Shown one piece after another: positions 1 to 64,000 of a stretch of 64,000 nt of DNA (positions within the stretch are counted from its first letter, which is position 1; every line of letters starts with the position of its first letter). The position numbers were made by a program, and so were the translations under genes. The notes below the pieces were generated by a model. It was not told where the DNA came from and did not search any database. It saw only the letters and a program-made list of their open reading frames with translations. Source of the stretch: Candidatus Azotimanducaceae bacterium (GTDB taxonomy: Bacteria; Pseudomonadota; Gammaproteobacteria; Pseudomonadales; Azotimanducaceae); contig JBJKYX010000034.1 of assembly GCA_045560825.1 (NCBI GenBank), positions 18,120 to 82,119 on the forward strand, given 5' to 3'.

Positions 1-457
1 AACTTTCTTCCCGGACATAGCCAACTCGTGTTGTTTTATAGTGCGTTAGAGGAAACCCTAGTTCCTCTATATTTTTAAGGACAGCCTCACTCACATTTCC
101 ATATATTTCTATAGAGAAACCGTCTCCTAACTCGCCGTGCTGACCCACATACTCTAGAACTGGTGGATTGGATGTGTGAGCTAAAAACGCCTCGCTATTT
201 TTATAGACCTCCGTCCAGGTAAACGCGAGAGGGTCATTTGGATCTGAATCAAAATTATGGAATAGCATGCCAGGTTCGGTTTTCTCAACAGCCTCATCAA
301 CAGTCTGAGCCGCGTCAAGGTATCGTTCTACCATGCCTTCTTTAACATGGACTCTTGCGATAAGTATAAAGGGGTTGGAACCCACGGCGCCCTCGTGATG
401 CGCGGAATAAGTTAGCCCGCTAACCACCAGCAAACTTGCAATAATAAGTAACTTCAA
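1..457 (-). CDS. Exported antibiotic-biosynthesis-monooxygenase (ABM)-like dimeric alpha/beta barrel protein, 3' end outside the window; not in the ORF track
   Basis: Hand translation: TTG at 457 after AGGAGG (alternative ATG at 475) gives MKLLIIASLLVVSGLTYSAHHEG..FILIARVHVKEGMVERY..EPGMLFHNFDSDPNDPLAFTWTEVYKNSEAFLAH; frame open to base 1. Confidence 0.8.
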   Translation of the reverse strand, partial: MKLLIIASLLVVSGLTYSAHHEGAVGSNPFILIARVHVKEGMVERYLDAAQTVDEAVEKTEPGMLFHNFDSDPNDPLAFTWTEVYKNSEAFLAHTSNPPVLEYVGQHGELGDGFSIEIYGNVSEAVLKNIEELGFPLTHYKTTRVGYVREES

Positions 458-557
458 CTTGTGCCTCCTGTTCATGTATGTTCGCATTTAACTAAAAAAT
501 CAATGTGATCAGATTAGAGTGACGGCCTCTGATACACAACTCTATGATTCCAGATCC

Positions 558-1925
558 TTATTCTGGCCAGGCCTCGCTCGCTTCTTCGGTTAATCGAGCA
601 ACCTCACGAGGCATCAAGACACCCTCTTCCACAGCCAACTTTGCCGCAGACTCGAATGCTTTCAGGAAGGAGCTCCGGTCAACGTGTCTTGCCAGCACCT
701 CCTCTTTGGAAAACGGGTGTGAAGAACCCCCGAGATAGGCAAAGATATCGGACTTTAAAGGAATCGCGCTGTTTATCGCCAGGGGAACCTCCACCTGAGG
801 AAGACGGATGCCCCCTTTTGCTATCCCGTCATCGTCACGAACAATCGACCCAGAGGCCTCAAACTCGATCCTTGGCTGAATTGGAGGTGCGACGCCTTCG
901 CTCAACCAACGATGCATGTGATAGAAAGCCGAATCGTAAAGCGGTCCTATTGGGATAGCGTTGATTCCATCGTCAGCGTCTACCGTGGCCAATCGATCTC
1001 GATCAGCCATAAGCTTTCGAGCTGCACGACTCTGCTGAGACACATGACAGGTGCCAGCCGATTCCCACCACCTTAATTTGCTGCTGTCAGGCTGACGCAC
1101 GCCGTAACAAGCAATCGCCTCTAGCTCGGAATTCACAATAAAAACTGGCCGATCTAGATCATCTCGCAGCACGTTGGCTCCGCGTAATATATCTGCCGGA
1201 GAGTCATTGTATTGAGCATTATTGATATTGACGAGCTCATCTCCGACCTGAAGAGGCGTTCCACGGCCAAAATAGATACTGAGAATAAACCCATCAAAAC
1301 TCTTATCGAAGGGCGCGATTGCATTAAAGTAAGTCCCCAAGCGGCCAGCAGACTGGGACGCGCCTTGGGCAATCACCCTCTTGATTTGTAATCCTGCCAT
1401 CGGATCAGGGGCTGACAAATCTCGATCAGGACCGACCGACGACCCTATCTGTGAAAAAATATCGTAGGAAAAGTCGTCGCTAGGGATATTAAGCGAGCCA
1501 TAGCGCTCCGAATCCCAGTCAGCAAGACCCTGTTTTATGGGCGGAAGCCCCTCAATCCCTGCTCTCTGAACGCTAGCACAAACCAAAGCATAACCGCCTT
1601 CGAGCACCTCAAGACTGTCTGCACCAAACAACTCATATCCCGCTGTGACGTTGTTCCAGGTAACAATTACGGTGCCATTGAATCGTTCAGGTTCAGTCGG
1701 TCGGTAAACCAATAAACGGGTTTTATATGCACCGGACTTGTCGGGCTCCGCCTGCCATTTGCCATCTCTCCCCCAATCGGTTCCGCCAACCTGCCGATAG
1801 CTGGTCGCCTCACCCTCGATGAAGTATTCAGCCTCTTCATAACCGTAAGAAGCCACATCGAGCATTGATTTGGCAAATGGCCAACCGTAATTTCCATCGT
1901 TAATCGGACCTGAAATAACCCCCAT
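558..1925 (-). CDS. Alpha/beta hydrolase domain protein
   Basis: 455 aa; YKTRLLVYRP..RFNGTVIV, nucleophile-like GASQSAG, C-terminal GGIRLP typical of this family; GAGGA RBS. Confidence 0.75.
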   Translation of the reverse strand: MGVISGPINDGNYGWPFAKSMLDVASYGYEEAEYFIEGEATSYRQVGGTDWGRDGKWQAEPDKSGAYKTRLLVYRPTEPERFNGTVIVTWNNVTAGYELFGADSLEVLEGGYALVCASVQRAGIEGLPPIKQGLADWDSERYGSLNIPSDDFSYDIFSQIGSSVGPDRDLSAPDPMAGLQIKRVIAQGASQSAGRLGTYFNAIAPFDKSFDGFILSIYFGRGTPLQVGDELVNINNAQYNDSPADILRGANVLRDDLDRPVFIVNSELEAIACYGVRQPDSSKLRWWESAGTCHVSQQSRAARKLMADRDRLATVDADDGINAIPIGPLYDSAFYHMHRWLSEGVAPPIQPRIEFEASGSIVRDDDGIAKGGIRLPQVEVPLAINSAIPLKSDIFAYLGGSSHPFSKEEVLARHVDRSSFLKAFESAAKLAVEEGVLMPREVARLTEEASEAWPE

Positions 1926-2498
1926 TAATTCCTCCTATAAACCAAAATAATCTGAGACTGGTTTTTTCATAATTTTATCCGGAAGCCAACAAGCTTGCCA
2001 TCTTGAAAGGCGCAGCAAACATGGCTCATAGAATAAACAAGACTGTCTACACAAATAATTTAACGCACCTGCTTGATCACCCCTCGAATATGGCAGCCAG
2101 CACCACATTGCCAACAGCTTAATGGCAGCCCAGACTCGATCGCGCACTTCAAATCAACAAGCCTAATCAGTTCCTTATGTTACCGCACAACGATCACAAC
2201 AATTCCAAACAGGAAGAATGAAATGGACTTAAGAACCTTCTTGACCCACTCCTTTCTTTTTCAAATGGAATGTGTTCGATAATCCATCAGACTAAAGGAG
2301 CGTTCAAGAGACTCCCCGAGAAGTCTTAGAGCAGCTAAATAATAATGATCGCTTGACTCTCATTGTGAATTTCTTGGTAATACCAAATCCAGGGTTGGCA
2401 ATTATTCTGAACTTAACCTAGCTGGATCTATAAAAAGATTCTTAGGAACACACAAATAAATAACAACATTCTTTCCAATACGAAACACAGGAAAGCAC

Positions 2499-2882
2499 AT
2501 GAGCGACTTACGCGATCTTCAAATAGACGGTCAATGGGTAAATCAAAATGGATCTATCTTAGAAGTCATCGAGCATAAAGGAACCTTGGAAGGTTCGTAC
2601 ATTTCCAGAAAGGGACGCTCGGCTTCAGGCAAGAATTACCCGCTGATTGGCCAACGCAACGGAAGCGTCCTAGCATTCCTAGTTAACTGGGAAGATGAAA
2701 AGAGTAATTTGGAATCCATTACTTCCTTTTCAGGCCGACTAATCATGGACCCATCTGGTGTTCCAACAATCCACACAATGTGGGTCCTTGTACGTCAATG
2801 GGAAGACCAAGACCAAAAAAAGCCAACGGGAGCCTGGAATTCGTTTCTAACTAACGCCGACACCTTTATTCCTATGGATTAG
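2499..2882 (+). CDS. Avidin/streptavidin family protein without signal peptide
   Basis: GQWVNQNGS, GSYIS, FLVNW, SITSFSG, TMWVL, AWNSFLTNADTF align by eye with the streptavidin/avidin strands and biotin-contact residues. Confidence 0.85.
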   Translation: MSDLRDLQIDGQWVNQNGSILEVIEHKGTLEGSYISRKGRSASGKNYPLIGQRNGSVLAFLVNWEDEKSNLESITSFSGRLIMDPSGVPTIHTMWVLVRQWEDQDQKKPTGAWNSFLTNADTFIPMD

Positions 2883-2985
2883 AAACCAACCGATGACATA
2901 AACCATTTATTACGGGGCTTAGCTGACGCATCAAAATTTCGATTATCTAACAGCCGAAGAATAACCAAAAGGTCAAAAATTAGTT

Positions 2986-3014
2986 TTGACAAAACCCGCA
3001 TAAATGTTAAGAAT
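2986..3014 (+). promoter_or_regulatory. Putative sigma70 promoter of the pan/fol operon
   Basis: TTGACA (2986-2991), 17 nt, AAGAAT (3009-3014), about 170 nt upstream of panB. Confidence 0.5.
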
Positions 3015-3024
3015 TCCGCCGCTT

Positions 3025-5537: not shown

Positions 5538-5561
5538 ACGTTTTTTCCGAATACCCGAACA

Positions 5562-7511: not shown

Positions 7512-8723
7512 GTGGAAAGTGCAGAAGTATCTAAGCTTCCTGTGACTGTTCTCTCGGGTTTTCTTGGGGCAGGAAAAACAACCGTTCTAAGTAACATCTT
7601 AAACAACCGAGACAACAAAAAAGTAGCCGTCATTGTTAATGACATGAGCGAAATTAATATTGACTCCGCAATCGTGCAGAACGAGGTTTCCTTAAACCGC
7701 AGCGAAGAAAAGCTTGTCGAGATGAGTAACGGGTGCATTTGCTGCACACTTCGTGAAGATCTCCTGGAAGAAGTTACCAAACTTGCTAAAGAGGGGCGTT
7801 TTGACTACTTGGTAATCGAGTCTACTGGCATTTCAGAACCCCTACCGGTAGCAGAAACATTTACTTTTGCTGACGAGGATGGCGTTTCACTGTCTGATGT
7901 TGCAAAACTGGATACCATGGTCACCGTAGTGGACGCGGTTAATTTTCTGAAGGATTACGAAGAAGCAAAGTATCTTCAAGAAAAAGGTGAATCGCTAGGC
8001 GAAGATGACGACCGCAGTGTCGCAGATCTACTCGTTGATCAGATAGAGTTTGCCGACCTTATTCTTATCAGCAAAACTGATTTAGTACGTCCCTCTGACA
8101 AAGAACGGCTCACCGCAATCCTAAAAGCGCTTAATACTGACGCAAAAATAATTCCAATCGAGCAGGGTAAGGTCGATATAGATGAAGTGCTAAACACTGG
8201 GTTATTCGATTTTGAAAAAGCGCAGCAGGCGCCTGGGTGGCTTAAGGAAATGCGGGGCGAGCACGTTCCCGAAACGGAAGAATACGGAATCGGCAGCTTC
8301 AGCTACGAAGCGCGAAGACCTTTTCATCCTGAAAAATTTCATCAATTTCTCCACTCCACGGAAAAATTTGGAAAACTATTGCGATCCAAAGGTTACTTCT
8401 GGCTGGCAACACGCCCGCAACTCGCGGGTCAATGGAGCCAAGCTGGCGGCATTGCTTCTTACGGGTTCGCAGGCATGTTCTGGAAAGCCATCCCTGAGAA
8501 AGATTGGCCCGACGATGAGGATTATCTTGCTTCTATCAAAAAGCAATGGGTGGAACCTTTCGGCGACATGCGACAAGAACTGGTCTTTATCGGTCAGGGT
8601 TTAGATCAAAGCAAAATGATCGAGGCACTTGATGAATGCCTTTTGAGCGAAGAAGAGGTACTCAAGGGCAAATCCTATTGGTCAACACTGTCAGATCCGT
8701 TCCCAGCTTGGAACCAGGCATGA
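7512..8723 (+). CDS. zigA: Zinc metallochaperone GTPase (COG0523, ZigA/YciC type)
   Basis: LSGFLGAGKTT, NGCICCTL, IESTGISEP, SKTD, CobW C-terminal domain RQELVFIGQ. Confidence 0.92.
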   Translation: MESAEVSKLPVTVLSGFLGAGKTTVLSNILNNRDNKKVAVIVNDMSEINIDSAIVQNEVSLNRSEEKLVEMSNGCICCTLREDLLEEVTKLAKEGRFDYLVIESTGISEPLPVAETFTFADEDGVSLSDVAKLDTMVTVVDAVNFLKDYEEAKYLQEKGESLGEDDDRSVADLLVDQIEFADLILISKTDLVRPSDKERLTAILKALNTDAKIIPIEQGKVDIDEVLNTGLFDFEKAQQAPGWLKEMRGEHVPETEEYGIGSFSYEARRPFHPEKFHQFLHSTEKFGKLLRSKGYFWLATRPQLAGQWSQAGGIASYGFAGMFWKAIPEKDWPDDEDYLASIKKQWVEPFGDMRQELVFIGQGLDQSKMIEALDECLLSEEEVLKGKSYWSTLSDPFPAWNQA

Positions 8724-8816
8724 GCGTTTTGAGTTCGTGGCTGATTGCTAGAGCTGGGGCTCTAAGTCGTCAAACCATACTTACCGACGCACGGCTTCTC
8801 AAAAAAAGGCGGTCTG

Positions 8817-9422
8817 ATGCAACTAGTTGAGAGCAATCAACTTAGTGACCTTAAGATGATCTATTCAGACGACGTAGAACTTGTCAGCATCGCGAGGACC
8901 AATTCCACGACCGTTCAAGAACTATCACAAAGATTGCTAGAGCTAAGAACCCCATTAAAATTACAATGGAAGCAGACTCTCAAAGATCGCGAAACAGCGG
9001 ATTCCCAACTGCCAGAATCCATAGACATTGAGCTTCGCACGATGCTGGTTGATCTGATAGGAGAGAGTTGCGAGATATTCGGCGAGCTGATGGGGTGCTC
9101 TCAAATCGGAGTAAGGTTAGCAACCTTGAGATCCCCCATGTGCCCTCGATTCCACGTGGACCAGATTCCATGTCGTATGATTATTACGATGGTCGGTACT
9201 GGTACCGAGTGGATCCCTAATACGGGGGTCAATTGGTCAGATTTTTCCGATCTTTCAAATGATAAAGCACCTCTAAACGATTCAGGAAAGATTCAACAAT
9301 TAGAAACAGGAAACTGGTCAATTTTAAAAGGGGGCGCTAGGGGTTATCAGGGTTTAGTTCACCGATCACCTCATGATTATTCGGAAAGGCTGCTACTCTC
9401 TCTGGATCCGATTTCCGAGTAA
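8817..9422 (+). CDS. DUF1826 family protein
   Basis: MCPRFHVD..RMIITMVGTGTEW..LKG..GLVHRSP..RLLLSLD; usual neighbour of COG0523. Confidence 0.85.
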   Translation: MQLVESNQLSDLKMIYSDDVELVSIARTNSTTVQELSQRLLELRTPLKLQWKQTLKDRETADSQLPESIDIELRTMLVDLIGESCEIFGELMGCSQIGVRLATLRSPMCPRFHVDQIPCRMIITMVGTGTEWIPNTGVNWSDFSDLSNDKAPLNDSGKIQQLETGNWSILKGGARGYQGLVHRSPHDYSERLLLSLDPISE

Positions 9423-9510: not shown

Positions 9511-9552
9511 ACAGTCATAGTCACAGTCACAGTCACAGTCACAGTCACAGTC
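9511..9552 (+). repeat. Hexanucleotide tandem repeat (ACAGTC)x7, one unit ATAGTC, abutting the ATG at 9553
   Basis: acagtc atagtc acagtc acagtc acagtc acagtc acagtc ATG. Confidence 0.9.
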
Positions 9553-11154
9553 ATGAATTATCTATCAAGAATCACCTTAGCGATCGCTCTTCTTCTTTTT
9601 TCACAACTGAATGCACATGATAAATGGGAGGCTGTAGAGTATTCGCGGGAAGCCGCACATGCCCCGACTCCTCTGCCAGACCGCGTCGTCCTAACCTGGG
9701 AGGGCGACCCCTCAACAACTCAGTCAGTCACCTGGCGCACAGATGTATCTGTCAAAAAAGGGATCGCACAGCTGGCAATCGCCAACTCAAACGGTAGAGC
9801 GTTGGAAACTGAGGCTTTCGAAGCAAACACCTCGTATTTTAAAAGCGATATCAATGAAGCTCACTACCACACTGCCACATTTACGAAACTGACACCCGAT
9901 ATGCTTTACGCTTATCGCGTAGGAGACGGCGTTAACTGGACTGAGTACTATCATTTCAAGACCGCGAGCGACCGCGCTCGACCTTTCAGCTTCATTTACT
10001 TTGGAGACGCGCAAAACGAAGTGCGGACTCACTGGTCAAGGGTCTTTAGAGAAGCATTTCGAGATGCTCCTAAGGCCGCATTTACGCTGCATGCTGGAGA
10101 CCTTGTCGACAACAATGATTGGGACTCTGAGTGGGGCGAATGGCACCAAGGGCCGGATTGGGTTAATGGAACTCTCCCAGTAATTGCAACTCCCGGAAAC
10201 CATGAATATCGCCGTGTTGACGCTGGCTCCCGATCGGAGCGCTATTGGACGACCAGCGATGGTCAGACTATTGAAGTCGACATGACCTCGTTCAAGCCAG
10301 TATCAAAAGAGAACGGCACAACCTATAAGATTTATTTCGTCGGCCCAAAAGGTAATGACACCTACTTAGAAATAAACGACGGAGGCAACATCATCAGCGT
10401 CGATGGAGGAGTAGAAAAAATAACCGGTCACAAAAGAGACGAACTGTTAGGAACTAGCTTCTATGCGGCTCCACTCTATGACAAACAGCGCAAACCTGGA
10501 AAGCCAGCCGTCAGCACCCACTGGCAGCCACAATTTGCTTTCCCAATTCAGAATGTACCGAGCGACAATCTCAGAGAGACAGTCTATTTCATCGACTATC
10601 AGGGCGTGCGCTTTATCTCGCTTGATTCAAACGCTGAAACCGAGTTGCAGGCACCTTGGCTTCGAAAGGCACTCGAAGAAAACCCCAACCGGTGGACAAT
10701 ATTAACTTTCCACCATCCAATTTTTTCGCCAGGATCAGATCGCGACAATAAAGACCTCAGAGAGCTATGGAAGCCGATCCTGGATGAGTTCAAAGTCGAC
10801 TTGGTTCTCAGCGTCAGCGGTCACGATCACACTTACGCGCGTACTGGAAAGATAGATACTCTAGCACTAACTAATGTCCCTGAAGGCTACCAGCAGGCTT
10901 ATGATCCTGAAATTGGGACCGTCTATGTTGTTTCCGTGAGTGGCCCAAAAATGTACCCCATCACAAAGGGGGCCTACGCCAAGAGAGTTGCCGAAAATAC
11001 ACAGCTTTATCAAATAATACACGTTGGTGATCTTAATTTGAGGTACGAGGCTTACGAGGCGACAGGAGATCTTTACGATACTTTTACTTTAAGAAAAAGA
11101 GAGGGATTGCCTAACCTTCTTATCGAAGCATTACCGCCTGAAAATCGACGTTGA
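9553..11154 (+). CDS. Exported purple acid phosphatase-like metallophosphoesterase (FN3-like N-domain)
   Basis: Signal peptide MNYLSRITLAIALLLFSQLNA; motifs GDAQ, AGDLV, PGNHE, FHHP, GHDH. Confidence 0.85.
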   Translation: MNYLSRITLAIALLLFSQLNAHDKWEAVEYSREAAHAPTPLPDRVVLTWEGDPSTTQSVTWRTDVSVKKGIAQLAIANSNGRALETEAFEANTSYFKSDINEAHYHTATFTKLTPDMLYAYRVGDGVNWTEYYHFKTASDRARPFSFIYFGDAQNEVRTHWSRVFREAFRDAPKAAFTLHAGDLVDNNDWDSEWGEWHQGPDWVNGTLPVIATPGNHEYRRVDAGSRSERYWTTSDGQTIEVDMTSFKPVSKENGTTYKIYFVGPKGNDTYLEINDGGNIISVDGGVEKITGHKRDELLGTSFYAAPLYDKQRKPGKPAVSTHWQPQFAFPIQNVPSDNLRETVYFIDYQGVRFISLDSNAETELQAPWLRKALEENPNRWTILTFHHPIFSPGSDRDNKDLRELWKPILDEFKVDLVLSVSGHDHTYARTGKIDTLALTNVPEGYQQAYDPEIGTVYVVSVSGPKMYPITKGAYAKRVAENTQLYQIIHVGDLNLRYEAYEATGDLYDTFTLRKREGLPNLLIEALPPENRR

Positions 11155-12848: not shown

Positions 12849-13346
12849 ATGAAAATAAGCATTATCCTTATGACCAGCTTGTTAGCTGTTTGCCTTTCTA
12901 CAAACGCGGGCCATCATGAACAAAACTCAGCCTCCCAGAATATCGCAGCTGCCTCCAAATTCATGGAAACGCTTCTGACCGACAGAGAGACTGCCGATTC
13001 ACTGTTACATCCAGACTTTGATTTCTTATTTATGGGAATTTCCCCTCACCTCTCGAATGTTCCTTACAACAAGGAAACCTACTGGTCAGTCTGGATGGAC
13101 GAGGTGATAGCACCCTTGGTACCAGATGGTTTTAAAAAAGTGGAAGTCGTAGATGCGATTGGCGATGAAAAAGGTGTCGCTCTTATGGTCGAAGGGGATG
13201 CTGATGGTATCAACGGACGATATAACAACAATTACGTATTTATCTTCAAATTTAAAGACGGGAAGATCCTCTCCTTAAGAGAATATACAAGCGACTTGAT
13301 GGTAGAAACTCGACTTTACAAACAAAAGCTTTCTCCAGACCAGTAA
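12849..13346 (+). CDS. Exported SnoaL/NTF2-like protein
   Basis: Signal peptide ..STNA-GHHE; C-terminal YNNNYVFIFKFKDGKILSLREY. Confidence 0.8.
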   Translation: MKISIILMTSLLAVCLSTNAGHHEQNSASQNIAAASKFMETLLTDRETADSLLHPDFDFLFMGISPHLSNVPYNKETYWSVWMDEVIAPLVPDGFKKVEVVDAIGDEKGVALMVEGDADGINGRYNNNYVFIFKFKDGKILSLREYTSDLMVETRLYKQKLSPDQ

Positions 13347-13571: not shown

Positions 13572-14177
13572 GTGGAAAGAAATTACCGAATATTGAACTG
13601 TTTCCACAATTACGCGCGCATTCTGCTCGCCATTTTGGCGATCAGCCTTACTCACTTTGCCTCAGCTAATGAGAACCATGCAGCCAGTTGGGGACCCAAA
13701 GTAGGTAGCACTGCGCCCATGCTAGAAGCTGAAGATCAGGCAGGAAAAACTCAGACGTTAAATAGCTTGAGAGGCCCAAAGGGCTTGTTGGTTGTTTTCA
13801 ACAGATCAGTCGACTGGTGACCATTCTGCATGCGTCAGTTCGTGAAACTGAATGACATCCAAAACAAATTCGAAGAATTAGGGATCGCCGTTGCGGGAAT
13901 GACCTATGATGCTCCTGAAGCCATTCAGAAATTTCATGAAAGATGGGATATTCAATATCCGCTTCTACGGGACGTTGACGCGCAGCACGTAGAAGCTTGG
14001 GGAATTCGCAACCAGGAATACGTGGAAGGCAACTTTGCGGGCATCCCGAATCCTGGTGTGGCGCTTCTATCTCCTGAAGGGGAGATTCTAGCAAAGTTTG
14101 CAGAACCCGGTTACCGGGGAAGACCCGACTGGTCGAGCGTCCTATCATCAGTCGAATCGATCGTTGGTGGCGAGTAA
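13572..14177 (+). CDS. Exported AhpC/TSA peroxiredoxin-like selenoprotein (UxxC), Sec at TGA 13818-13820
   Basis: Tracked ORFs 13572-13820 and 13830-14177 are in frame; joined they read FNRSVDW-U-PFCMRQ, a thioredoxin-fold active site; SECIS-like hairpin follows; about 201 aa. Confidence 0.9.
13835..13851 (+). promoter_or_regulatory. Bacterial SECIS-like hairpin
   Basis: TCAGTT-CGTGA-AACTGA; 20 nt between UGA and loop; G at loop position 2. Confidence 0.75.
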
Positions 14178-17554: not shown

Positions 17555-17992
17555 ATGCGTTACGTAGTTTTAACAACAGCACTATTACTGATCTCTTTCA
17601 CCCATTTTTCGACCGCAGATGATCACCCAACAATTACAATCCCATCTGAATCTCTTTCAGTAAAGGGTGAGGTAACCAATTTAGAACTCACCGAAACAGG
17701 TGGAGTCATCTCTGTAAAGGCTATCGCTGGAAAATACGGACTCGTATTCATAACTTACAACATGAGCACAAACCCCAACTCCAAAACACAAGGTACCTTT
17801 ACCGGACGAGGCATGGGCATAGACGATACCGGCAATAGAGAGTTCGCTCAAAGACGAGGCGTGTGGACGCGAGAAGGTACTCTACTAACTCTTCATTCGC
17901 TCGATGACTTGACTGACGGCACTCAAAACCTTTGCAAATCTGAGCTCAATCTCTCCAGCGGAGAGTTCGAGATGACCTTCTACCCAATGTGA
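17555..17992 (+). CDS. Exported hypothetical protein
   Basis: Signal peptide ..HFSTA-DDHP; AAGGA RBS. Confidence 0.7.
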   Translation: MRYVVLTTALLLISFTHFSTADDHPTITIPSESLSVKGEVTNLELTETGGVISVKAIAGKYGLVFITYNMSTNPNSKTQGTFTGRGMGIDDTGNREFAQRRGVWTREGTLLTLHSLDDLTDGTQNLCKSELNLSSGEFEMTFYPM

Positions 17993-20256: not shown

Positions 20257-21000
20257 ATGATCAATAAACTCTTAAGCCTGTTTGGCTTACTTTTAATTTC
20301 CTATCAGCTCAATGCAGCCTCTTTTAAGGTTTACGAAGGAGCAATTCCTTTAACAAAACAAGCAGCCGTTCTTGAAGCCGCCGATAAATTCATGAAGTCG
20401 GAGACCGGCAAGACATTTAAGGGTGGCTTTCACATAAACACTATTTTGGCGAATGGCATAAGCCCAGCCACCCACAATTTCGCGCTACTGATGCCGAGTC
20501 TTGAGGACATTCACAAATGGGAATCATCGCTGGTCGGAAACTCTGATATCCAAGAATTTTGGGAGGTTCTAGACCAACACTCGACGCCGGTTTCTGAATT
20601 TATGGGTAGCTTGATAAAAACCTGGGGAAACGTCTCCAATGAGGATCAGTTTTGGTTGCTGACAAAATTTAGAACAACAGACCCAGCTAAAGTTGTGGCA
20701 GCCCAAGACAGGCTCGACAAAGCTATGAGCGACAAGTTCCCAGGCCAGGTCATTCTGCACGCAATTTCAATCGGCAACAGAACTGGTCGAAATAACGACT
20801 ACTCCACCCATATGTTTATCGTTGGCTATGAGTCAGTTAAAGAAATGGAAAGCTGGACGAACTACATGAATATGCAACCAGCCTGGGCAGAGTATCTAAA
20901 TTCACTGCGGGATGTGGTGACGTGGCAAGGATCAGAGTTACTTCAAAATACCGTCATTTACGATAATGGTATGGACGTGGAAAGCTTTCACGGACAGTAG
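20257..21000 (+). CDS. Exported hypothetical protein, two-repeat ferredoxin-like/dimeric barrel
   Basis: Signal peptide; two similar halves (ATHNFALLMPSLEDI / STHMFIVGYESVKEM). Confidence 0.65.
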   Translation: MINKLLSLFGLLLISYQLNAASFKVYEGAIPLTKQAAVLEAADKFMKSETGKTFKGGFHINTILANGISPATHNFALLMPSLEDIHKWESSLVGNSDIQEFWEVLDQHSTPVSEFMGSLIKTWGNVSNEDQFWLLTKFRTTDPAKVVAAQDRLDKAMSDKFPGQVILHAISIGNRTGRNNDYSTHMFIVGYESVKEMESWTNYMNMQPAWAEYLNSLRDVVTWQGSELLQNTVIYDNGMDVESFHGQ

Positions 21001-30485: not shown

Positions 30486-30722
30486 ATGTATAAACTCATA
30501 CTCGTTCTTTTTTTACTGATCACTCCCCTATCTCTCTATTCAGCTGGCCATAAAGAAGGCAAAGAGCATGGCGGAAAAGAAGCCCAATCCAAGGAACACG
30601 GTGGCAAAGAGGCTAAATCCAAAGAGCACGGCGGGAAAGAAGCCCAATCCAAGGAACACGGTGGCAAAGAGGCTAAATCCAAAGAGCACGGTGGAAAAGA
30701 AGCTAAATCCAAAACCGACTAG
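30486..30722 (+). CDS. Small exported protein made of KEHGGKEA(Q/K)S repeats
   Basis: GGAG RBS, hydrophobic signal peptide, then five decapeptide repeats. Confidence 0.85.
   Translation: MYKLILVLFLLITPLSLYSAGHKEGKEHGGKEAQSKEHGGKEAKSKEHGGKEAQSKEHGGKEAKSKEHGGKEAKSKTD
30561..30710 (+). repeat. 5 x 30-bp coding tandem repeat with 60-bp higher-order period
   Basis: Units alternate aaagagca(t/c)ggcgg(a/g)aaagaagcccaatcc and aaggaacacggtggcaaagaggctaaatcc. Confidence 0.95.
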
Positions 30723-35433: not shown

Positions 35434-36021
35434 ATGGCGCTAATCTTAATCAAATTTCATGTCTTTGTAGTGACTTTACTTTTTTCCCTTAGTGGTTACG
35501 CGAATCATCACGAATTAAAAAGAGCAGACTACAAAAGCCAGGAGGCATACCTAAAAAGTATCATGGAAATTGCCATGTCGGCGGCACCTTCTAATGTCAG
35601 TTCTGAAGCGACGATCATGGGGGCAAACGGTGAAATTCTTCGAGAAGGCACTAATGGTTGGACTTGCATGCCGGGCACCCCGCCCAACGAGAACGTAAAT
35701 CCGATGTGCGTTGACAAGGCTTGGCAGAAGTGGCTCGACGCTTTTGTAAACAAAAAGCCCTACGACTCTGAGTCAGCGGCTTTTGGAATGTCCTATATGT
35801 TGGTTGGCGACGTGCCTGTCGACAACGACGATCCGCGTAACACCGACCGCTCAAAAGGAACCTGGGTTCAGGAGGGGCCTCACCTAATGATACTGCTTCC
35901 TGAAAGTATGATGAAAGATTTCCCCAGAGATCCCTATGCGGGAGGTCCTTACGTTATGTTTGACGGTACCGACTACGTCCATATGATGGTCCCGTTGACA
36001 GCCTTAGAAAGACCAGAATAA
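35434..36021 (+). CDS. Exported hypothetical protein
   Basis: Signal peptide ..SGYA-NHHE; AMSAAP, LREGTNGWTCMP, PMC, SYML, GPHLM, PYVM..HMM. Confidence 0.8.
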   Translation: MALILIKFHVFVVTLLFSLSGYANHHELKRADYKSQEAYLKSIMEIAMSAAPSNVSSEATIMGANGEILREGTNGWTCMPGTPPNENVNPMCVDKAWQKWLDAFVNKKPYDSESAAFGMSYMLVGDVPVDNDDPRNTDRSKGTWVQEGPHLMILLPESMMKDFPRDPYAGGPYVMFDGTDYVHMMVPLTALERPE

Positions 36022-53709: not shown

Positions 53710-56700
53710 CTAACGCTTGAGTAGTTCTATTGCCATACGGGTGATTTCGTTGGCCTGCACTAAAACAGAGGCTCCTGCCTGTTGTATAACCTGATTCTTT
53801 GAAAGTCTCGCTGCTTCTAAGGCATAATCAGCGTCCTCTATGCGTGATCGAGAAACAGTGGTCTGTTCATTTATTCCAATTTGCTTTGAGATCACCTGAT
53901 TCAACCGAGTCTCCATCGCCCCCATATCAGACCGCATCAGGGACAATTTATCCAACGCATTGTCGATAATGTTGATGGATTTACTTGCGTCCCTCGCATT
54001 TGAAACATCGACATCGCTTACCTGGTAAAGAGTCGACTCTCCAGAATCATCAATTCGAAACTCAAAAGACTCGTTAGACATTACTGCTTTGAATGGCTGA
54101 GGAAAGCCTTCAGCGGTAGTGACTAAGCGTTGACCCAATTGCTGGATCGCTGCAGCACTCAATACTGGTGGACTAGCATCAATTTTTACATTATCTACAT
54201 AAAGCTGAGCGCCAGCCCACTCTCCACCAGAGGCGTCCCAAGTTCCAGCAATGAATACAAATTTATACTTACCCGCCTCGCTGACGCTTTTAGAAACCGT
54301 AGCCCAATTAGTTGAAGCCGAACCATTAGGTCCAGTCTGATTCAAAATCTCTTCTACTCGACCCGTGTCCTCGTCTACCAAATAACCCATAACATCATAT
54401 GCATCGCTGCCACCGGTGGCTCGCCAGTCAAACTCAATTTTGTCACCTGCTTGAAGCTTTACTGCCTTCTGGCTCGCCAAATAAGGTCCGTGCAAGATCC
54501 CATAAGAAGGGACCATCGCATCGGAATCGGACGATTTCATCATGACTGACTTACCACTTCCAGTAGATGTCTGTGAGGAAAGTGCAGTCTGAAAAACAGG
54601 CGCATTTGCGTTACTGAGAACGGTCGCGTCGTAGGGCGCGTTTTGTCCTGTGTCAACATTAGCAGGAAACACGGTATCGTCCGGAGTCGGGTGGCCAGCT
54701 ACCGTGCTGTTTCCATTCAGTCGAATCTGCTTATTGTAGACTTGCCATCCAGGTATGCTGGTATCACCAACGCTGCCTTCCTCAAAATCTCCATTTTCGA
54801 ATTCATAATTTAAGTTAAATTTGAAGGGTTCACCGTTTAGGCCATCTTTCGATGCATCGATCCGCCCAACGATTATTGCGCTTGTGCCAGTGCCTTCATA
54901 CAAAATATCTCCTACGAGCGACAACTGTCCAACACTCGTTAAAGCAGAAGCATCTTTCTGAACGTATAGATCCTGAGGGACAGCAAAGTAACCTGGTTGC
55001 GCTGATCCCCTAATTTCAGTCACCGCAGTTCCGCCTGTAATTTTCGTACCATCCGCCTTATAAATATCAAAATCACCATAGACTTTGGGACCTGTAATTT
55101 TCATCTCATCATCGTTGTTAGTTCCGCCATCAACCTCCACGACCGTAAACGCGTTATCGCCCGTTGCCGCCCGAATTTTAGCCTGGAACTCCGCTGTGGT
55201 AGCGGCAGTGGTCGTGAAATTGGTTCGCGTTCCATTGGAATTGATAATGTAATAATCGCCTGCGCCATATGTATTTACATTAGCTGTTGTGACTTTGACT
55301 GCGGCCGTCGCTTTGTCTCCCTGCTGTGAAACAGTAAAGTTCTCTGCAGAAGACAGCTTAATCGTACCTGAGACTCGCACAGAATCGTTGGCCCCAGCAA
55401 CACCGATCATGGAGGGCCCACCGATGGTTGAAACTCCATCATCCCCAACTTTTTGCAAGGCAAGTCCCTTACCAGCCGACAGATTTTCAACGGTAATATC
55501 GCCGCCATTCGGATCTGTTAGAACGACCTTGTGATCCTGCTGTGTCGCTATCACGCCCGTCTGTCCGGATATCTGGTTAATCGCCCAGACTGCCTCATCA
55601 GCAAAACTTTCGTTCATGACAAAGTTTCCGGTAGTAACTCCATTTACATTTAATCTAAAGCGAGCGCTTTTGACTCCAACAACTTCCGTTGTCGCGTTAC
55701 CCCCGGTTAGCTTAAAAAAATCATGCCCCAAGATCTCAAAGTCCCCAAAGGTTGCTGGACCCTCAAATTTCAGTTCATCATTATGGTCCGTACCGCCATC
55801 GACTTCGGTCACTTTGAAAGCATCGTCTCCCATCATCGCTCGAATCTTTGCTTGGAAGTCTGCAGCCGTCGCTGCAGCAGTGAAAAACTGATGCTTCGTA
55901 CCATCTGCTTCTTGAATGTAGTAAGTGCCGGCTGTGTAAACGTTAGCAACCGCCGTGGTTACTTTCACTGCAGGCGTACCAGTAAAAGACAGTAAGCCTA
56001 TGGTTTTAGCGTCGGCCCTGACCCCCGTTTCGCCCGTTGCCTTATTAATCTTGTTAGCCATCATTTCGGCTGTATCCGCTATATCAGATGTAATCAGCTT
56101 CGTCCCAGAATAGCCCGTAATCTCTACCCCGTGCGAAGCGGTCACTAGATTCCTATCTCCCACCATTGTGGTTGACGGCATAGCCTCTAAACCGTTCCCG
56201 ATATAGGTGTGTGCGCCTATCATCTCGGACGCAACAGAATCGACAGAGAATTTGATTTCATCGGACGACTCTGCTCCAACCATGAAACTCTGATTCTTAA
56301 AGCGTCCATCTAAAATCAATGCGCCGTTGTAACGCGTAGTTTCCGATACTCGTGTTATTTCCTTCTGCAACAATTCCACTTCTTCTTGCAGAAAACTTCT
56401 ATCAATGTTGGAGTTCGTCCCATTTGTTGACTGCATAGCCAACTCTCGCATTCGTTGCAGCATGTCGGTCAATGTACCAATCGCCCCTTCGATAGATCGC
56501 GTCAGAGCAATTCCATCATTCGCATTTTTGATTGCAGTATTAAGTGATTGAATCTGAGCAGACATCTTTTGACTGATCGAATGACCGATGGGATCATCGG
56601 CGGAATTATTGATTTTAGTCCCCGTGGCAAGACGCTCCATCGCCTCGGTCATATCCTTACCAGCGGAACTCATCGCTCTTTGCGTTGTCAGCATCGATAC

Positions 56701-56718
56701 AGAGTTATTAATCTGCAT
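53710..56718 (-). CDS. fliC: Giant multidomain flagellin (about 1000 aa)
   Basis: N-terminal MQINNS..MERLATGTKINNSADD..NANDG..LQRMRELAMQSTNGT; C-terminal RSDMGAMETRL..SRIEDADYA..QAN; ATG 56718 preceded by GAGGA. Confidence 0.92.
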   Translation of the reverse strand: MQINNSVSMLTTQRAMSSAGKDMTEAMERLATGTKINNSADDPIGHSISQKMSAQIQSLNTAIKNANDGIALTRSIEGAIGTLTDMLQRMRELAMQSTNGTNSNIDRSFLQEEVELLQKEITRVSETTRYNGALILDGRFKNQSFMVGAESSDEIKFSVDSVASEMIGAHTYIGNGLEAMPSTTMVGDRNLVTASHGVEITGYSGTKLITSDIADTAEMMANKINKATGETGVRADAKTIGLLSFTGTPAVKVTTAVANVYTAGTYYIQEADGTKHQFFTAAATAADFQAKIRAMMGDDAFKVTEVDGGTDHNDELKFEGPATFGDFEILGHDFFKLTGGNATTEVVGVKSARFRLNVNGVTTGNFVMNESFADEAVWAINQISGQTGVIATQQDHKVVLTDPNGGDITVENLSAGKGLALQKVGDDGVSTIGGPSMIGVAGANDSVRVSGTIKLSSAENFTVSQQGDKATAAVKVTTANVNTYGAGDYYIINSNGTRTNFTTTAATTAEFQAKIRAATGDNAFTVVEVDGGTNNDDEMKITGPKVYGDFDIYKADGTKITGGTAVTEIRGSAQPGYFAVPQDLYVQKDASALTSVGQLSLVGDILYEGTGTSAIIVGRIDASKDGLNGEPFKFNLNYEFENGDFEEGSVGDTSIPGWQVYNKQIRLNGNSTVAGHPTPDDTVFPANVDTGQNAPYDATVLSNANAPVFQTALSSQTSTGSGKSVMMKSSDSDAMVPSYGILHGPYLASQKAVKLQAGDKIEFDWRATGGSDAYDVMGYLVDEDTGRVEEILNQTGPNGSASTNWATVSKSVSEAGKYKFVFIAGTWDASGGEWAGAQLYVDNVKIDASPPVLSAAAIQQLGQRLVTTAEGFPQPFKAVMSNESFEFRIDDSGESTLYQVSDVDVSNARDASKSINIIDNALDKLSLMRSDMGAMETRLNQVISKQIGINEQTTVSRSRIEDADYALEAARLSKNQVIQQAGASVLVQANEITRMAIELLKR
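55006..55971 (-). repeat. Two diverged 99-aa internal domains in the flagellin (55675-55971 and 55006-55302)
   Basis: AVKVTTA..Y.AG.YYI...FQAKIRA..GD.AF.V.EVDGGT...DE.K..GP...GDF.I..TGG.A.TE in both. Confidence 0.9.
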
Positions 56719-56842
56719 TAGGTCCTCATCGATCAACCAAGTGTCTCTCATCAAACAAAGTGAGCGTTGTTGCTAAAGTGTGGAACAAAGCTACCGACTA
56801 CTTACTTTGGTCGAAGAAAATAAAAAACTACTCCTAGTTGAG

Positions 56843-57967: not shown

Positions 57968-58819
57968 CTATATAGTACCGGGTCGAATGTTGATTTCCAC
58001 ATCGTATCTGAGCGGATCACTACAAGTCATAATCTCATCAAAGCTAGCCTGAATCTCTTGTCCACTTTCAGCATAAGCAGCCATACCAGAACTTTCTTCT
58101 GACTCACTAGCCCACGCATTCATCCAGATAAAGTCATAAGCATTAGGAACACCATCGCTGGCTTTGGATGCTTCCGGATCGAAATCGGGCGCAAAGTAGG
58201 CCCAGCTATATCCAGTTGCTCCATTCTTGGCTTCATAATCATCAAGCCAAGCTCCATAAGTATCTACGGCAACAGGACGTAAATCGCTACCTTCCTTGCC
58301 TTCGTTATAAGTGCAAAACTGATAACTCGCTATCCTTCCTTTACTTTCCTGACCGCCCATAGCCACCGTAGCTGGCCGTGGTTGATAAACATTGACTGCA
58401 AACAACTCGTCAGACCCATCACCCGCACAGGTTTCAACACCGGGGAATTTTTCCTGCAGATTTTCTTCAATACCTGACTCTATATAGGCCGCCCATCCCG
58501 CATCGCGGGAGGCCTTATCATTCCAAATCAAGCCTACAATTCGATCAAAGTTACTTTCATCGAACTTTGGAAAGAGACTAAAGTGCCCAAACGCAGGAAC
58601 ATCAGACTCGGCCACCATCTGTCGCCAATAGGCCTGCGAAGCTTCAAAACTCTCCTCTGAGAAATTAGACCCATTGTGGCACCACAAATATTCTTGATAC
58701 CTATCGGGTTCTCTAGGGCCCGAGTTATTGCTGGCAGCCGTATCCTCTTGAGGTCGCTCAGCCGGAGAGCAGGCCAATAACAACCCTAACATCAGTAGAT
58801 ATAAAAAATTATTCTTCAT
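57968..58819 (-). CDS. Lipoprotein of unknown function (paralog of 58845-59687)
   Basis: Lipobox LLAC-SPAERP; EYLWC, NFDR, RDAGW, YQFCTYNEGK, YDFIWMN. Confidence 0.8.
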   Translation of the reverse strand: MKNNFLYLLMLGLLLACSPAERPQEDTAASNNSGPREPDRYQEYLWCHNGSNFSEESFEASQAYWRQMVAESDVPAFGHFSLFPKFDESNFDRIVGLIWNDKASRDAGWAAYIESGIEENLQEKFPGVETCAGDGSDELFAVNVYQPRPATVAMGGQESKGRIASYQFCTYNEGKEGSDLRPVAVDTYGAWLDDYEAKNGATGYSWAYFAPDFDPEASKASDGVPNAYDFIWMNAWASESEESSGMAAYAESGQEIQASFDEIMTCSDPLRYDVEINIRPGTI

Positions 58820-58844
58820 TTTATCATCCTCATTTAATTCAGAA

Positions 58845-59687
58845 CTAAGACCGAGACTTCACACTCCTACCAGCCCAAACTTGCTCTTCACTACAAGTCG
58901 CGACATCGTTAGCCGCTTCCATCATAGTGTTTCCGTATTGTTCCACGGCAGACCATCCACTATCTCGCCCAGCCTCATCCGACCAGATATTCACCCATAG
59001 ATAATCAAAAGTATCCGGGACACCCTCGTGTACCTCAACTGCTTCATCATCAAAGTCTGGGACATTGACTGCAGTTCCAAAACTTATGTTGGGGTTTTCA
59101 GAATCGTAACGATCTAAAAAGTCGTTCCATGGCCCTGCCAAAAACTCCCTCAGGTTATCGCGACTTTTACCTTCATTAAAATTGCAAAACTGATAACCAA
59201 CCACAAAAGAATCAGAAGCTTCCCGCTCCCGTAGTCTGTAGGAATTCATGGGATATACGTTAGACCAGCCTTCGCCCCCACAACTTTCAACGCCAGGATG
59301 TGCTTGATTCAACCTTTCCTCTATTCCAGAACTCAAATAAGCTTCCCAGCCTGCATCACGTTCTGCTTTGTTCTCCCAAAATAGAACTGACACTCTGTCA
59401 AAATTCTCTGAAGACCAACCCAGCGGTGTTATCTCAGCCGATCCCATCCTGCTTAATCCCAACTGACCAACTTCTTCTAGCCAAATTTCTTCTCGAGCCT
59501 TCACAGACTCAACAGAATAATTCTCGCCATCAGAGCACCACAAATATTCAACGTATCCATTAGGTTCAGGGACGCTTTCTTGGGTAACATCAGAACCTGA
59601 CGAAGCTACCGATTTATCCGCAGGTCGCTCCGCTGGAGAACAGGCAAAAAGCCCGAACACCAAAAACAAAAACAATAATCTGAACAT
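58845..59687 (-). CDS. Lipoprotein of unknown function (tandem paralog)
   Basis: Lipobox LFAC-SPAERP; EYLWC, NFDR, RDAGW, YQFCNFNEGK, FDYLWVN. Confidence 0.8.
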   Translation of the reverse strand: MFRLLFLFLVFGLFACSPAERPADKSVASSGSDVTQESVPEPNGYVEYLWCSDGENYSVESVKAREEIWLEEVGQLGLSRMGSAEITPLGWSSENFDRVSVLFWENKAERDAGWEAYLSSGIEERLNQAHPGVESCGGEGWSNVYPMNSYRLREREASDSFVVGYQFCNFNEGKSRDNLREFLAGPWNDFLDRYDSENPNISFGTAVNVPDFDDEAVEVHEGVPDTFDYLWVNIWSDEAGRDSGWSAVEQYGNTMMEAANDVATCSEEQVWAGRSVKSRS

Positions 59688-60229
59688 GCTATTTTCCCTC
59701 TTATTCTTATAAATTTTTTTCAACTGATTCCAATTAACATCAAACCAGTTTCAATATGTTCTACCTCTTTAAAACAGGTTGTTCAACTACAAATTGAAAA
59801 ATTTGCAACACCAATTTTGATCTCGCCAGTAATCTGGGCTAAGAGTCGTCTTGCAGCCTCGTTTTCGCCTCACTCACCAAAGCCAACTGTCCAATGTGAC
59901 AGAAACCATCAAGCATTATTGGTTCCGCATCTTCCGAAATTCGTCCAAGCACGTAGATACAAACTTGCTGGCTTTCCTGATAAAAATGTTATCCAAAAAC
60001 ACAATTAACCGATCTTTTTGCCACCACCCTAGAAAAACCAGAATAGCCAAAAATATAAGTACGGCAAAAAGTCTTATAAAAAATGTTTTAAACATAATGA
60101 CCAGTACCAATGAGAATCAAATAAAGGAAAACCCGAACCAAAGAACAACGAAAGAATAAAATCGGTCTGACAAAATACTCTCTTAGAGTCATACTCTTAA
60201 TCAAACCGGAAGTTATAAAGGCCTTCAAC

Positions 60230-61340: not shown

Positions 61341-61428
61341 GCCCGGGTGGTGAAATTGGTAGACACAAGGGACTTAAAATCCCTCGGAATAATATTCCGT
61401 GCCGGTTCGAGTCCGGCCCCGGGCACCA
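61341..61428 (+). tRNA. tRNA-Leu (anticodon TAA), long variable arm, encoded CCA
   Basis: GCCCGGG acceptor, TGGTGAAATTGGTAGACAC D arm, AGGGA-CTTAAAA-TCCCT anticodon arm, GCCGG-TTCGAGT-CCGGC T arm, ACCA end. Confidence 0.97.
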
Positions 61429-61507
61429 ACAAATGTTCGTAACTTATTGTATTTATTATATTATTTAATAGATACTAAGCCTATAGGAGTCACTTTAAGG
61501 AGACACA

Positions 61508-62104
61508 ATGGGCTTAAAGTACATCGTTCTACATAAAGACGTTTTATATTACAGAAGACGTTATCCAAAGAATTTGAAACCAGCATTCGGCGGTAAAGAG
61601 TTTTACCGTCATAGTCTCAAACTGCCCAAGAATGCCCCGGACTCTAAAATCACTGCAGCATGGCAGAAAGCTAACGAAGATGCTGGCAAGACACCTTATG
61701 AAGATATTTGTGACCAGGCCAAGATAGACGATAGAGCTAGATGTAAGGCGTTCATTACTGTAGCTATGGGTGCTGATGACAGGACTAAAGCTGCTAACGC
61801 TCTAAGACAGCAGGGAATGAATACGAAGACATTTGAAGCCTTTGAAGCAGCTGCTCTAGAACGCTTCCCTAAAGTCAGTCTGTTCACTGGCTGGACTCAT
61901 CAAGCTCAGAACCTAGAGGGACAAATTCTTAAGGATGTGATGCTTAAAGGGGTTAGGGATAACATTGTCACGTTACCAGTTCATGATGCAGTGGCTGTAC
62001 AACGACGACATGCTAAATGGGCTGAGGAAGCCATGAAGGAAGCATGGCAATTTCATACAGGAGTTAAGTTTGAGCCGGTGTTGAAAGTGGATGAGGGGGA
62101 TTGA
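61508..62104 (+). pseudogene. Chimeric remnant: integrase-associated N-terminal domain (DUF6538-like) fused to a family-A-polymerase-like C-terminal fragment
   Basis: VLYYRRRYPKNL..F..SLK at the N-terminus; QNLEGQIL..VTLPVHDAVAV at the C-terminus; no tyrosine recombinase catalytic motifs. Confidence 0.55.
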
Positions 62105-62651: not shown

Positions 62652-62751
62652 CTAGTATTCTAGCGTTTCCTATCTGAAAGCTAGGAATGGACCTATTTTT
62701 GGCTTGGATTCTTTTGTTATATTGAGGCAAGTTGTTAACGCGAAATCAGAA

Positions 62752-63009
62752 ATGTCTGGAGAACATCCGTACGATAAGTGGTTAAGGACGAGATCTAAGC
62801 TTGTGAGATTTTTGATTCGAATAATTGGAATCATAGTTTTGTATTACATTTTGCCTCCGCTCTCGTGTTTAGCAGCACTTCAGCACACCGGGATGGCACA
62901 GTTTGCTTGCTTACAGGAGAGTAATTGGGGAGATTGGCGAATGGACGTATTCTTTCCGGATCGTCCGGACCCTCTTGAGAGGCTCAATCTACCCAACCAG
63001 AACCAATAA
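62752..63009 (+). CDS. Small membrane protein of unknown function
   Basis: ATG 62752, one TM segment; 3' end overlaps the 68-bp repeat. Confidence 0.5.
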   Translation: MSGEHPYDKWLRTRSKLVRFLIRIIGIIVLYYILPPLSCLAALQHTGMAQFACLQESNWGDWRMDVFFPDRPDPLERLNLPNQNQ

Positions 63010-63057
63010 CAATTAGAGAAAGGCTAAAGCTCTCCCCGGGGTGTTAAAAAGAACCCA
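62990..63057 (+). repeat. 68-bp dispersed repeat, copy 1
   Basis: tacccaaccagaaccaataacaattagagaaa..gggtgttaaaaa..accca; 61/68 identical to copy 2 by hand alignment. Confidence 0.9.
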
Positions 63058-63173
63058 CCCCACTTGAGATTACCTTGGTTTCTTTTGTTATAGTTATAAA
63101 ATATTGGCTGTCACGTCAGGGAAAATACTGGTGTGGCTGCTCTATAAAGCTGTAACAAAGGGAACAAAAAAGG

Positions 63174-63569
63174 ATGAAAAGCATAGTTGTCATTTTGCTG
63201 ACTTTGGTTTTTTTGAGTTGGGCTAGCTTGGGTAATTCCGCCAAGTATCAGTTTGCCGTAAAGATAATTAATAAGACAGGCAAAGATTTAACTAAAGTCT
63301 CTGCGGTTTGGAATGTAAAAGGAACACCCGATGAGAATTGGTCTTGCTTTAAGTCAAGATCCATATCCGCAGGACAGAACTATCAAACGGATTGTTACCA
63401 TAAAGCGCTGGTAGAAAAGTGGCAACGACAGATAGTGGTTACTTTTACTTGTCCGAGCATGGGGGCTAGGACTATAACCTTCCCTAGAAACGCCAAGTAT
63501 TACAAAAGAGACCACGCTACCAGCAAGGGTGATAGATATACAGTGAGATTAAAAGCATCCGATTGCTAA
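63174..63569 (+). CDS. Secreted basic 4-Cys protein (paralog of 62202-62651)
   Basis: Signal peptide; YQFAVKIIN, KWQRQI..FTCP, YYKRDHA, YTVRLKASDC. Confidence 0.8.
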   Translation: MKSIVVILLTLVFLSWASLGNSAKYQFAVKIINKTGKDLTKVSAVWNVKGTPDENWSCFKSRSISAGQNYQTDCYHKALVEKWQRQIVVTFTCPSMGARTITFPRNAKYYKRDHATSKGDRYTVRLKASDC

Positions 63570-63677
63570 TCTTTTTTTGATAAGGGTCACAAAGCCTATA
63601 GTAGGACCAATCAGAACTAGATGCTTGAGGTGGAGCAACTCGAGCTTGCAGAATCAAGTCCTAAGAAGCTCTATAAG

Positions 63678-63745
63678 TACCCAACCAGAACCAATAACAA
63701 TTAGAGAAAAGCTAAAACTCTTCCGTGGGTGTTAAAAAAGACCCA
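63678..63745 (+). repeat. 68-bp dispersed repeat, copy 2
   Basis: First 32 nt identical to copy 1. Confidence 0.9.
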
Positions 63746-63847
63746 GTTCTTTTATCAATAATGGAAATCAACAGTATCCGTGCTAGGCTAAAAATGGCTT
63801 GTAATCATGCGGGCAAAAAGAAAAATAATACTTTAGGGGAATAAATC

Positions 63848-64000
63848 ATGAAATATTGGATAACGGCCTTTATTGCGACGACACTCGCAATCAACAGCTT
63901 TGCAGACAATCACGAACCTGATTGGGCTGTCCAAATTGGAGACGGGGTTTCGCAAACAGTTCATTTTTGCAAACTCATTAATGGCGCAACCATGGACGAT
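63848..64000 (+). CDS. Exported protein, 5' part only (runs off the window)
   Basis: MKYWITAFIATTLAINSFA-DNHEPDWAVQIGDGVSQTVHFCKLINGATMDD; GGGGA RBS. Confidence 0.75.
   Translation, partial: MKYWITAFIATTLAINSFADNHEPDWAVQIGDGVSQTVHFCKLINGATMDD

Follow-up and report, generated by a model that had tools for sequence, protein, structure and literature searches.

Predicted export-activated X-X-His tips on unrelated exported proteins of a Candidatus Azotimanducaceae genome and other bacteria: a possible periplasmic copper buffer

Polypeptides with a free NH2-X-X-His terminus and no Pro at position 2 form the ATCUN motif (for amino-terminal Cu and Ni), described as a four-nitrogen, square-planar Cu(II) site (PMC12929937, PMC10515390) with log K values of 11.0–14.6, on which residues 1 and 2 are reported to have little effect (PMC10515390). 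In the available accounts of serum albumin (DAH), hCtr1 (MDH), hepcidin and the histatins, removal of a leader creates NH2-Xaa-Zaa-His outside the cytoplasm, and the albumin site both buffers and carries Cu(II) (PMC12929937, PMC10515390, PMC7701195). Here we report predicted termini of this kind, called tips below, on exported proteins encoded in a 64,000-nucleotide stretch (the window) of a Candidatus Azotimanducaceae bacterium (assembly GCA_045560825.1, here G000, 2.26 Mb and 65% complete; contig JBJKYX010000034.1, C34:18120-82119) and in other bacteria. As in the albumin group, leader removal would create the site; unlike that group as portrayed in those sources, the tips are bacterial, lie at predicted sites on many unrelated proteins per genome, were gained more than once and differ in residues 1 and 2 from genome to genome. 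His-rich N-terminal tails are known from CusF and ZinT, which are dedicated metal-handling proteins. In the histidine brace of CopC and the lytic polysaccharide monooxygenases (LPMO), signal-peptide cleavage likewise completes a copper site, built from His1 and a second His supplied by the fold; here the His stands at position 3 after the predicted cut (+3), on a tail modelled with low confidence, and only one near miss of the window, at 9553, has His at +1. The nearest described bacterial case is Caulobacter PcoB, which also has a flexible His-bearing periplasmic N-terminal extension; in its available description PcoB is, however, a dedicated metal handler whose motifs are internal and only ATCUN-like (PMC12509749), whereas the carriers here are transport, redox and functionally unassigned proteins with a three-residue tip. 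No description of a bacterial multi-protein X-X-His system was found in the literature, where an earlier remark may stand in subscription papers or supplements, and neither a review (PMC7701195) nor a survey of trace metals (PMC4771312) mentions such tips in the portions available.

A further comparison is offered by the L,D-transpeptidases, which are reported to tether outer-membrane proteins to peptidoglycan via mature Gly-Gly and Ala-Asp N-termini (PMC12729407). These motifs resemble the tips in being short, cleavage-exposed and common to different envelope proteins, and one tipped protein is a porin. As far as that source describes them, they differ from tips with an invariant His3, a free residue 1 and mostly soluble carriers, and linkage would block the amine of an ATCUN site. 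The tips of the window (AHH, GHH, DDH, AGH, NHH and DNH) occur on soluble proteins. A YkuD transpeptidase was found in the genomes G078, G573 and G842 and not in G000 or in the tip-rich, 98% complete G021, VanW-type enzymes lying outside the search; because of this result in G000 and G021, peptidoglycan tethering fits poorly.

A first-pass annotation had noticed six exported proteins of different folds with His as the third residue after the likely cut, and had proposed that much of the periplasmic proteome of this lineage might be tagged in this way. We predicted cut sites with our own gene caller and heuristic scorer rather than SignalP; the scorer weighs the n-, h- and c-regions only and is blind to residues after the cut, apart from a filter that drops proteins with a continuing hydrophobic stretch or membrane helices, and all mature termini given here are predictions. 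Of the 176 soluble proteins of G000 that are predicted to be Sec-exported, 15 have His at +3, against a background of 1.7% (p 3.9e-7), with 6, 4, 4 and 2 occurrences at +1, +2, +4 and +5, and the +3 excess was stable over five thresholds. The tips read DDH (nine), GHH (two), DNH, DGH, AHH and NHH. All 15 carriers are ≤270 aa (15/85 small versus 0/91 larger proteins) and are non-lipoproteins by cut-site scoring, while none of the 36 predicted lipoproteins of G000 has His at +1 to +5. With cuts placed by the same heuristic, the peak was repeated in the SAR86 genome G573 (777 kb read), in which 6 of 64 proteins, from six families, have His at +3 (p 3.5e-4) and other positions have at most two. 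Pooling of 268 proteins from G000, SAR86 and Porticoccaceae revealed a 5.0-fold excess of His at +3, other residues reaching at most 3.0-fold at +1 to +6, with Asp raised 2.3-fold at +1 and 2.2-fold at +2. The proposed extent did not hold, since only 8.5% of the predicted Sec proteins of G000 are tipped and 60% of those belong to one family. Restriction to the lineage found no support, the tip being found also in SAR86 and some alphaproteobacteria and being nearly absent from large-genome congeners. That unrelated exported folds carry it was borne out, with at least 18 such proteins in one genome (G842). Tipped proteins make up 5 of 18 in the window, two of the 18 looking like miscalled lipoproteins, versus 10 of 158 in the rest of G000, so the feature noticed at first is real yet locally concentrated.

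The six reading frames and motifs lie where they had been annotated, and the cut that places His at +3 was the top call for five of them (TYS↓AHH, TNA↓GHH, STA↓DDH, GYA↓NHH and SFA↓DNH, arrows marking the cut). An exported 154-aa protein of the antibiotic biosynthesis monooxygenase (ABM) fold (PF03992; 1..457, minus strand, ending just beyond the window) has a predicted Ala-His-His tip at 395-403 (minus). The exported 165-aa SnoaL/NTF2-like protein at 12849..13346 (plus; PF12680, below cut-off) would begin with Gly-His-His (12909-12917, plus), and its relatives with AHH, GHH, GNH and DHH. For the exported 145-aa protein at 17555..17992 (plus), which has no Pfam match, the predicted tip is Asp-Asp-His (17618-17626, plus); relatives read DGH, GHH and GHH, and two G000 paralogs have no tip. 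Parts of this gene are covered, with 0–12 differences, by contigs from four of four marine metatranscriptome runs (four studies); the runs give contigs only (word shares 0.05–0.14) and no expression level, were picked via this region and may hold DNA, and therefore indicate presence only. The exported 78-aa His/Gly/Lys repeat peptide at 30486..30722 (plus) is the case in which the annotated cut stood only in part, SAG↓HKE (score 2.6) tying with LYS↓AGH (2.5), two residues earlier, which alone gives His at +3 (Ala-Gly-His, 30543-30551, plus). We favour the latter because similar repeat-bearing small proteins of congeners read AQA↓DGH and VMA↓AGH (relatives L310, DGH, and L311, AGH). The exported 195-aa protein at 35434..36021 (plus), with a predicted Asn-His-His tip at 35503-35511, belongs to a widespread family without a name. 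The last is the start (63848..64000, plus) of an exported 254-aa protein with a predicted Asp-Asn-His tip at 63905-63913 (plus), whose family A appears NIPSNAP-like; the family has no Pfam match, the closest Atlas cluster that bears a name is NIPSNAP (score 0.91, 61% of members), and a paralog model with a predicted local distance difference test score (pLDDT) of 91.5 shows a duplicated alpha+beta barrel, the marine metagenome structure 2pgc being the most similar. Both models, ABM and family A, place the tip ahead of the first strand as a tail of low confidence (residues 1–3 in the ABM-fold protein and 1–4 in the other, pLDDT <50), which suggests, but does not establish, disorder. Pro is found at position 2 in none of the six tips and in none of 141 collected tips, a set biased by the search patterns; by prediction, five window tips, and the tied sixth if cut after LYS, thus have the ATCUN form. 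Two lipoproteins and one Sec protein of the window (57968-59723, minus; 20257-21000, plus) are untipped and have a weak alignment with family A. Two near misses, neither of them ATCUN, were as annotated: LNA↓HDK, with His at +1, in a purple acid phosphatase-like protein (9553..11154, plus), and ASA↓NENH, with His at +4, in an AhpC/TSA-like redoxin (13572..14177, plus).

The register of the His was examined within families. Among 77 distinct N-termini of the ABM family, 58 have His at +3, three do not and 16 are ambiguous between AIS↓AHH and ISA↓HH, a sister reading AIS↓SHH. The best 120 of 951 ABM homologs comprise 70 with XXH, 42 with the same ambiguity, three without His and five without a signal call, of which three are truly signal-less and have no tip and two are missed FA↓GHH termini. 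Because residue 1 (A, G, D, S, V, N or T) and the linker from cut to domain (10–18 aa) vary while His3 stays, the His is fixed to the predicted cut rather than to the fold. At a mean column identity of 33%, Asp1 and His3 persist in at least 90% of the 35 family A rows, many of which came from tip-based searches. In the family of the 35434 protein, His stands at +3 in only 6 of 74 signal-bearing representatives (best 150 of 1162). A quick unrooted tree of 86 rows gave two tip changes, with the SAR86 member apart from the clade of the window, gain and loss being indistinguishable without a root. Among homologs the His is kept in register with the predicted cut, yet the nearest two relatives of the 63848 protein have lost it. 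Tip codons vary synonymously, and the DNA likeness of signal peptides is 0.334 for tipped and 0.334 for other genes, so selection appears to act on the protein; copied signal-peptide cassettes were rejected on the same grounds. In a pair of tannase-family look-alike orthologs (L303:1501-3009 and G000 C34:1576-3075), one reads GHH and the other DDD, and the tip seems to have been gained or lost within the genus.

The distribution of the tips was surveyed with a profile of 24 tips (A4, with rows from G000, G014, G018, G021, G078 and G431; E ≤0.05). The RecA of G000 shares 91–93% identity with that of congeners, 87% with that of two Ca. Azotimanducaceae and 83% with that of a Porticoccaceae genome. 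The profile matched 40 of 60 congeners, 34 of 36 with genomes ≤3.2 Mb (154 matches) versus 4 of 20 at ≥4.0 Mb (7 matches), counts in which kin are not independent. Beyond the genus it matched 43/251 genomes of the order, 34/300 of the class and 34/301 of the phylum, nearly all with one or two matches; zeros are floors, as the signals used to train A4 are AT-leaning and gammaproteobacterial, and those of alphaproteobacteria escape it (one match in G842, 18 by pattern). A loose DNA pattern run over the 251 genomes of the order was dropped as evidence, out-of-frame matches swamping the GC-rich genomes. Cut-site scoring found His at +3 in 0/41 proteins of the large congener G001 (400 kb read), in 1/28 of a Porticoccaceae sample and in 2/28, both DGH, of the Rhodobacteraceae genome G874, neither of the last two being significant alone. 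A strict DDH pattern over GTDB gave at least 120 loci, 64 of them passing the signal test; at least nine are titled SAR86 and the rest lie across many phyla. Escherichia coli K-12 had 11 pattern matches against 17 reversed controls, and none was a clear tip. Among 50 tipped proteins sampled from further genomes, 31 have Pfam matches, which include SnoaL/NTF2 variants, cupin, NIPSNAP, carboxymuconolactone decarboxylase, tannase, fasciclin, EF-hand, FKBP and DUF4331. Within a 20-kb stretch of G584 (L339, G584:C3:87000-106999), eight of nine well-scored signal proteins are small, exported and XXH-tipped; they represent several folds and are encoded on both strands. The feature is real, convergent and patchy by lineage, and its distribution follows no simple marine rule.

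In the alphaproteobacterial family f303, roseobacter-like as judged from orthologs 72–74% identical in Ruegeria and Pseudosulfitobacter, a DGH pattern matched 32 of 81 genomes, mostly once each; it gave 18 matches in G842, 11 in G910, 7 in G953 and 6 in G882, with no reversed-control match in any of these four, and a control of DG plus a codon not starting with C gave four in G842. A called signal peptide precedes 17 of the 18 DGH in G842 and the last is preceded by what looks like one, Sec-type and twin-arginine-type signals both being observed. The carriers are sugar, amino-acid, polyamine, TRAP, TAXI-like and TctC binding proteins, a porin, a fasciclin, a metallo-beta-lactamase-fold protein and cytochrome c2. 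The Gly at residue 3 of the solved cytochrome c2 1cxa becomes residue 6 where DGH precedes it, which points to an add-on. A wider XXH pattern against an XXQ control gave 22/6 in G842, 14/5 in G910, 13/3 in G904, 11/0 in G911 and 11/2 in G942, with no excess in many other f303 genomes, and added DSH, TSH and NGH in G842. DGH was also found on TctC of the named roseobacters (Ruegeria and Pseudosulfitobacter) and not on the Photobacterium ortholog. On the chromids of Ruegeria and Pseudosulfitobacter the pattern had just 2 matches and 1 match, respectively, not above controls, though the TctC of each has DGH, so the pattern is insensitive. Orthologs change residues 1 and 2 largely with the genome while His3 is constant: TctC reads DGH/DGH/GGH/EGH in G842/G910/G942/G934, the branched-chain binding protein DGH/EGH/GGH in G842/G918/G942, the polyamine binding protein DGH/ESH/EGH/GSH and cytochrome c2 DGH/DGH/EGH. 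Preferred tips are DGH in G842 and G910, mostly GGH in G942, EGH/AGH in G934 and G918 and ESH/DSH in G929, G904 being mixed; the KI89A clade of gammaproteobacteria, to which G000 belongs as judged from its genus, and SAR86 have mainly DDH and GHH.

We favour, at a probability of about one half, the reading that these tips are export-activated ATCUN sites for Cu(II)/Ni(II) which collectively form a periplasmic copper buffer, because of ATCUN chemistry and because seawater copper is ligand-bound. Surface-ocean copper is reported to be more than 99% ligand-bound, with a strong ligand class of K above 10^13.5 (PMC7004168), a value that falls inside the ATCUN range. From ATCUN chemistry, the tips would likely bind metal. 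Signal cleavage would expose X-X-His, signal peptidase leaving the alpha-amine free, and the three residues would form a site for Cu(II) and, more weakly, Ni(II) on a flexible add-on that the fold presumably does not need. Lineages living at low and fluctuating copper may place the tip on exported proteins made in quantity, and many unrelated tipped proteins would then act together like albumin; if loaded in vivo, they would keep bound Cu(II) redox-quiet, protecting the envelope and holding a store on which an importer or reductant could draw. If this is so, many proteins with a site of log K 11–14.6 would amount to a sizeable copper pool that has gone unnoticed, and would offer a gene-encoded candidate for some of the chemically ill-defined strong copper ligands of seawater. 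The tips are also a case in which a single three-residue motif has been attached to unrelated proteins genome-wide, in a form particular to each genome. The native terminus is usually replaced in recombinant and structural work, so the tip would have been missed. The wider proposition, that several ocean lineages independently evolved a genome-wide export-activated X-X-His tag that acts as a Cu/Ni store and a marine ligand source and has a co-evolving reader, is tentative and on balance doubtful.

Several results weigh against the copper-buffer reading. Nine of the 15 tipped G000 proteins are paralogs in family A; with families collapsed, His stands at +3 in 7 of 123 (p 0.031) versus 6, 4 and 4 at +1, +2 and +4, and outside family A in 6 of 167 (p 0.067), so the family-level signal in G000 alone is weak and His is also raised at +1, +2 and +4. 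The two homologs closest to the 63848 protein (96% and 88% identity) read DND and DNQ. No copper genes were seen beside the tip genes of G000, where neighbours were listed by position and length only. Nickel supply to nickel superoxide dismutase (NiSOD) found no support, the enzyme occurring in 8 of 61 congeners and in one of 15 with at least five tips, and neither did a replacement of CusA-type efflux, such pumps being present in 14 of 61 congeners, including the tip-rich G014, G021 and G602. A sugar-binding ortholog is tipped in one of six marine or marine-associated records and in none of four from soil or plants (10 of 25 matches compared, named strains), and marine versus soil failed as a simple rule on this set; a second query gave no plasmid match. 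Finally, residues 1 and 2 follow the genome though their reported influence on Cu affinity is small; this is not expected from pure buffering, and it is the feature that simple buffering explains least.

This per-genome form keeps alive the alternative that the tip is a tag read after export by a genome-encoded factor, such as a receptor or importer, a peptidase or a modifying or anchoring enzyme, with tips and reader co-evolving and metal binding either part of recognition or incidental. The switching of residues 1 and 2 with the genome in TctC, the branched-chain and polyamine binding proteins and cytochrome c2, together with the complete lack of DGH pattern matches in G942, G934 and G918, speaks for it, and the Gly-Gly and Ala-Asp termini read by L,D-transpeptidases offer a precedent. 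We nevertheless consider it improbable: G904 mixes ESH, GGH, GSH, DSH and EGH, and G000 mixes DDH, GHH, AHH and NHH; the uniformity of G842 and G910 is partly built in, their loci having been chosen by a DGH-only pattern; YkuD was not found in G000 or G021, as stated above; and no candidate reader gene was identified. An effect on export or stability, through a peptidase preferring small or acidic residues plus His or through shielding of the terminus from aminopeptidases, would suit the general rise of Asp at +1 and +2, a single peptidase would fit a per-genome preference, and the tipped proteins have no function in common. It is rated as clearly unlikely, as some 90% of the proteins exported by the same genomes have no tip at their cut, and we know of no signal-peptidase preference that needs His at the third residue after the cut.

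The pattern might also be an artefact or neutral, produced by expansion of a paralog family, an island rich in genes, cassette copying or misplaced cuts. The predominance of family A in G000, the unusual density of the window and of the G584 20-kb stretch, the home-made predictor, and the 56% DNA identity between the signal peptides of 30486 and of a C15 gene all agree with this. However, the pattern was replicated in unrelated families and classes with a predictor blind beyond the cut, the signal peptides have no overall cassette likeness and their tip codons vary, and the controls are flat (G001 and E. coli K-12), which makes such an origin very unlikely. Bound Cu or Ni could, lastly, be a catalytic cofactor lending redox chemistry to cofactor-free barrels (ABM, NIPSNAP-like, SnoaL and cupin). 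Most tipped proteins of G000 and SAR86 are indeed small cavity-bearing folds, and Asp1 and His3 persist in family A at low identity; but tips are also found on solute-binding proteins, a porin and cytochrome c2, none of which requires a cofactor of this kind, linker length is free and most members of the 35434 family have no tip, and the proposal appears highly improbable.

Other features of the window were also recorded. The redoxin with the near miss at +4 (13572-14177, plus) and a second exported AhpC/TSA-like redoxin (36052-36630, minus) each contain an in-frame TGA, likely coding for selenocysteine, in a W-stop-x-x-C context, and both are likely UxxC selenoproteins split by reading-frame calling. 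Directly 5′ of the start codon of the purple acid phosphatase-like gene lies a tandem hexamer repeat, (CAGTCA)n, at 9514-9552, possibly a length-variable element at the translation start. A CobW/COG0523 GTPase adjoins DUF1826 (Pfam) at 7512-9422, a pair typical of zinc limitation. A reading frame of about 1000 aa at 53710-56754 (minus), flagellin-like by eye, has a very long central insert. At 61341-62104 a tRNA is followed by an integrase-like remnant, labelled by eye, and low-GC small exported genes, which suggests an island edge.

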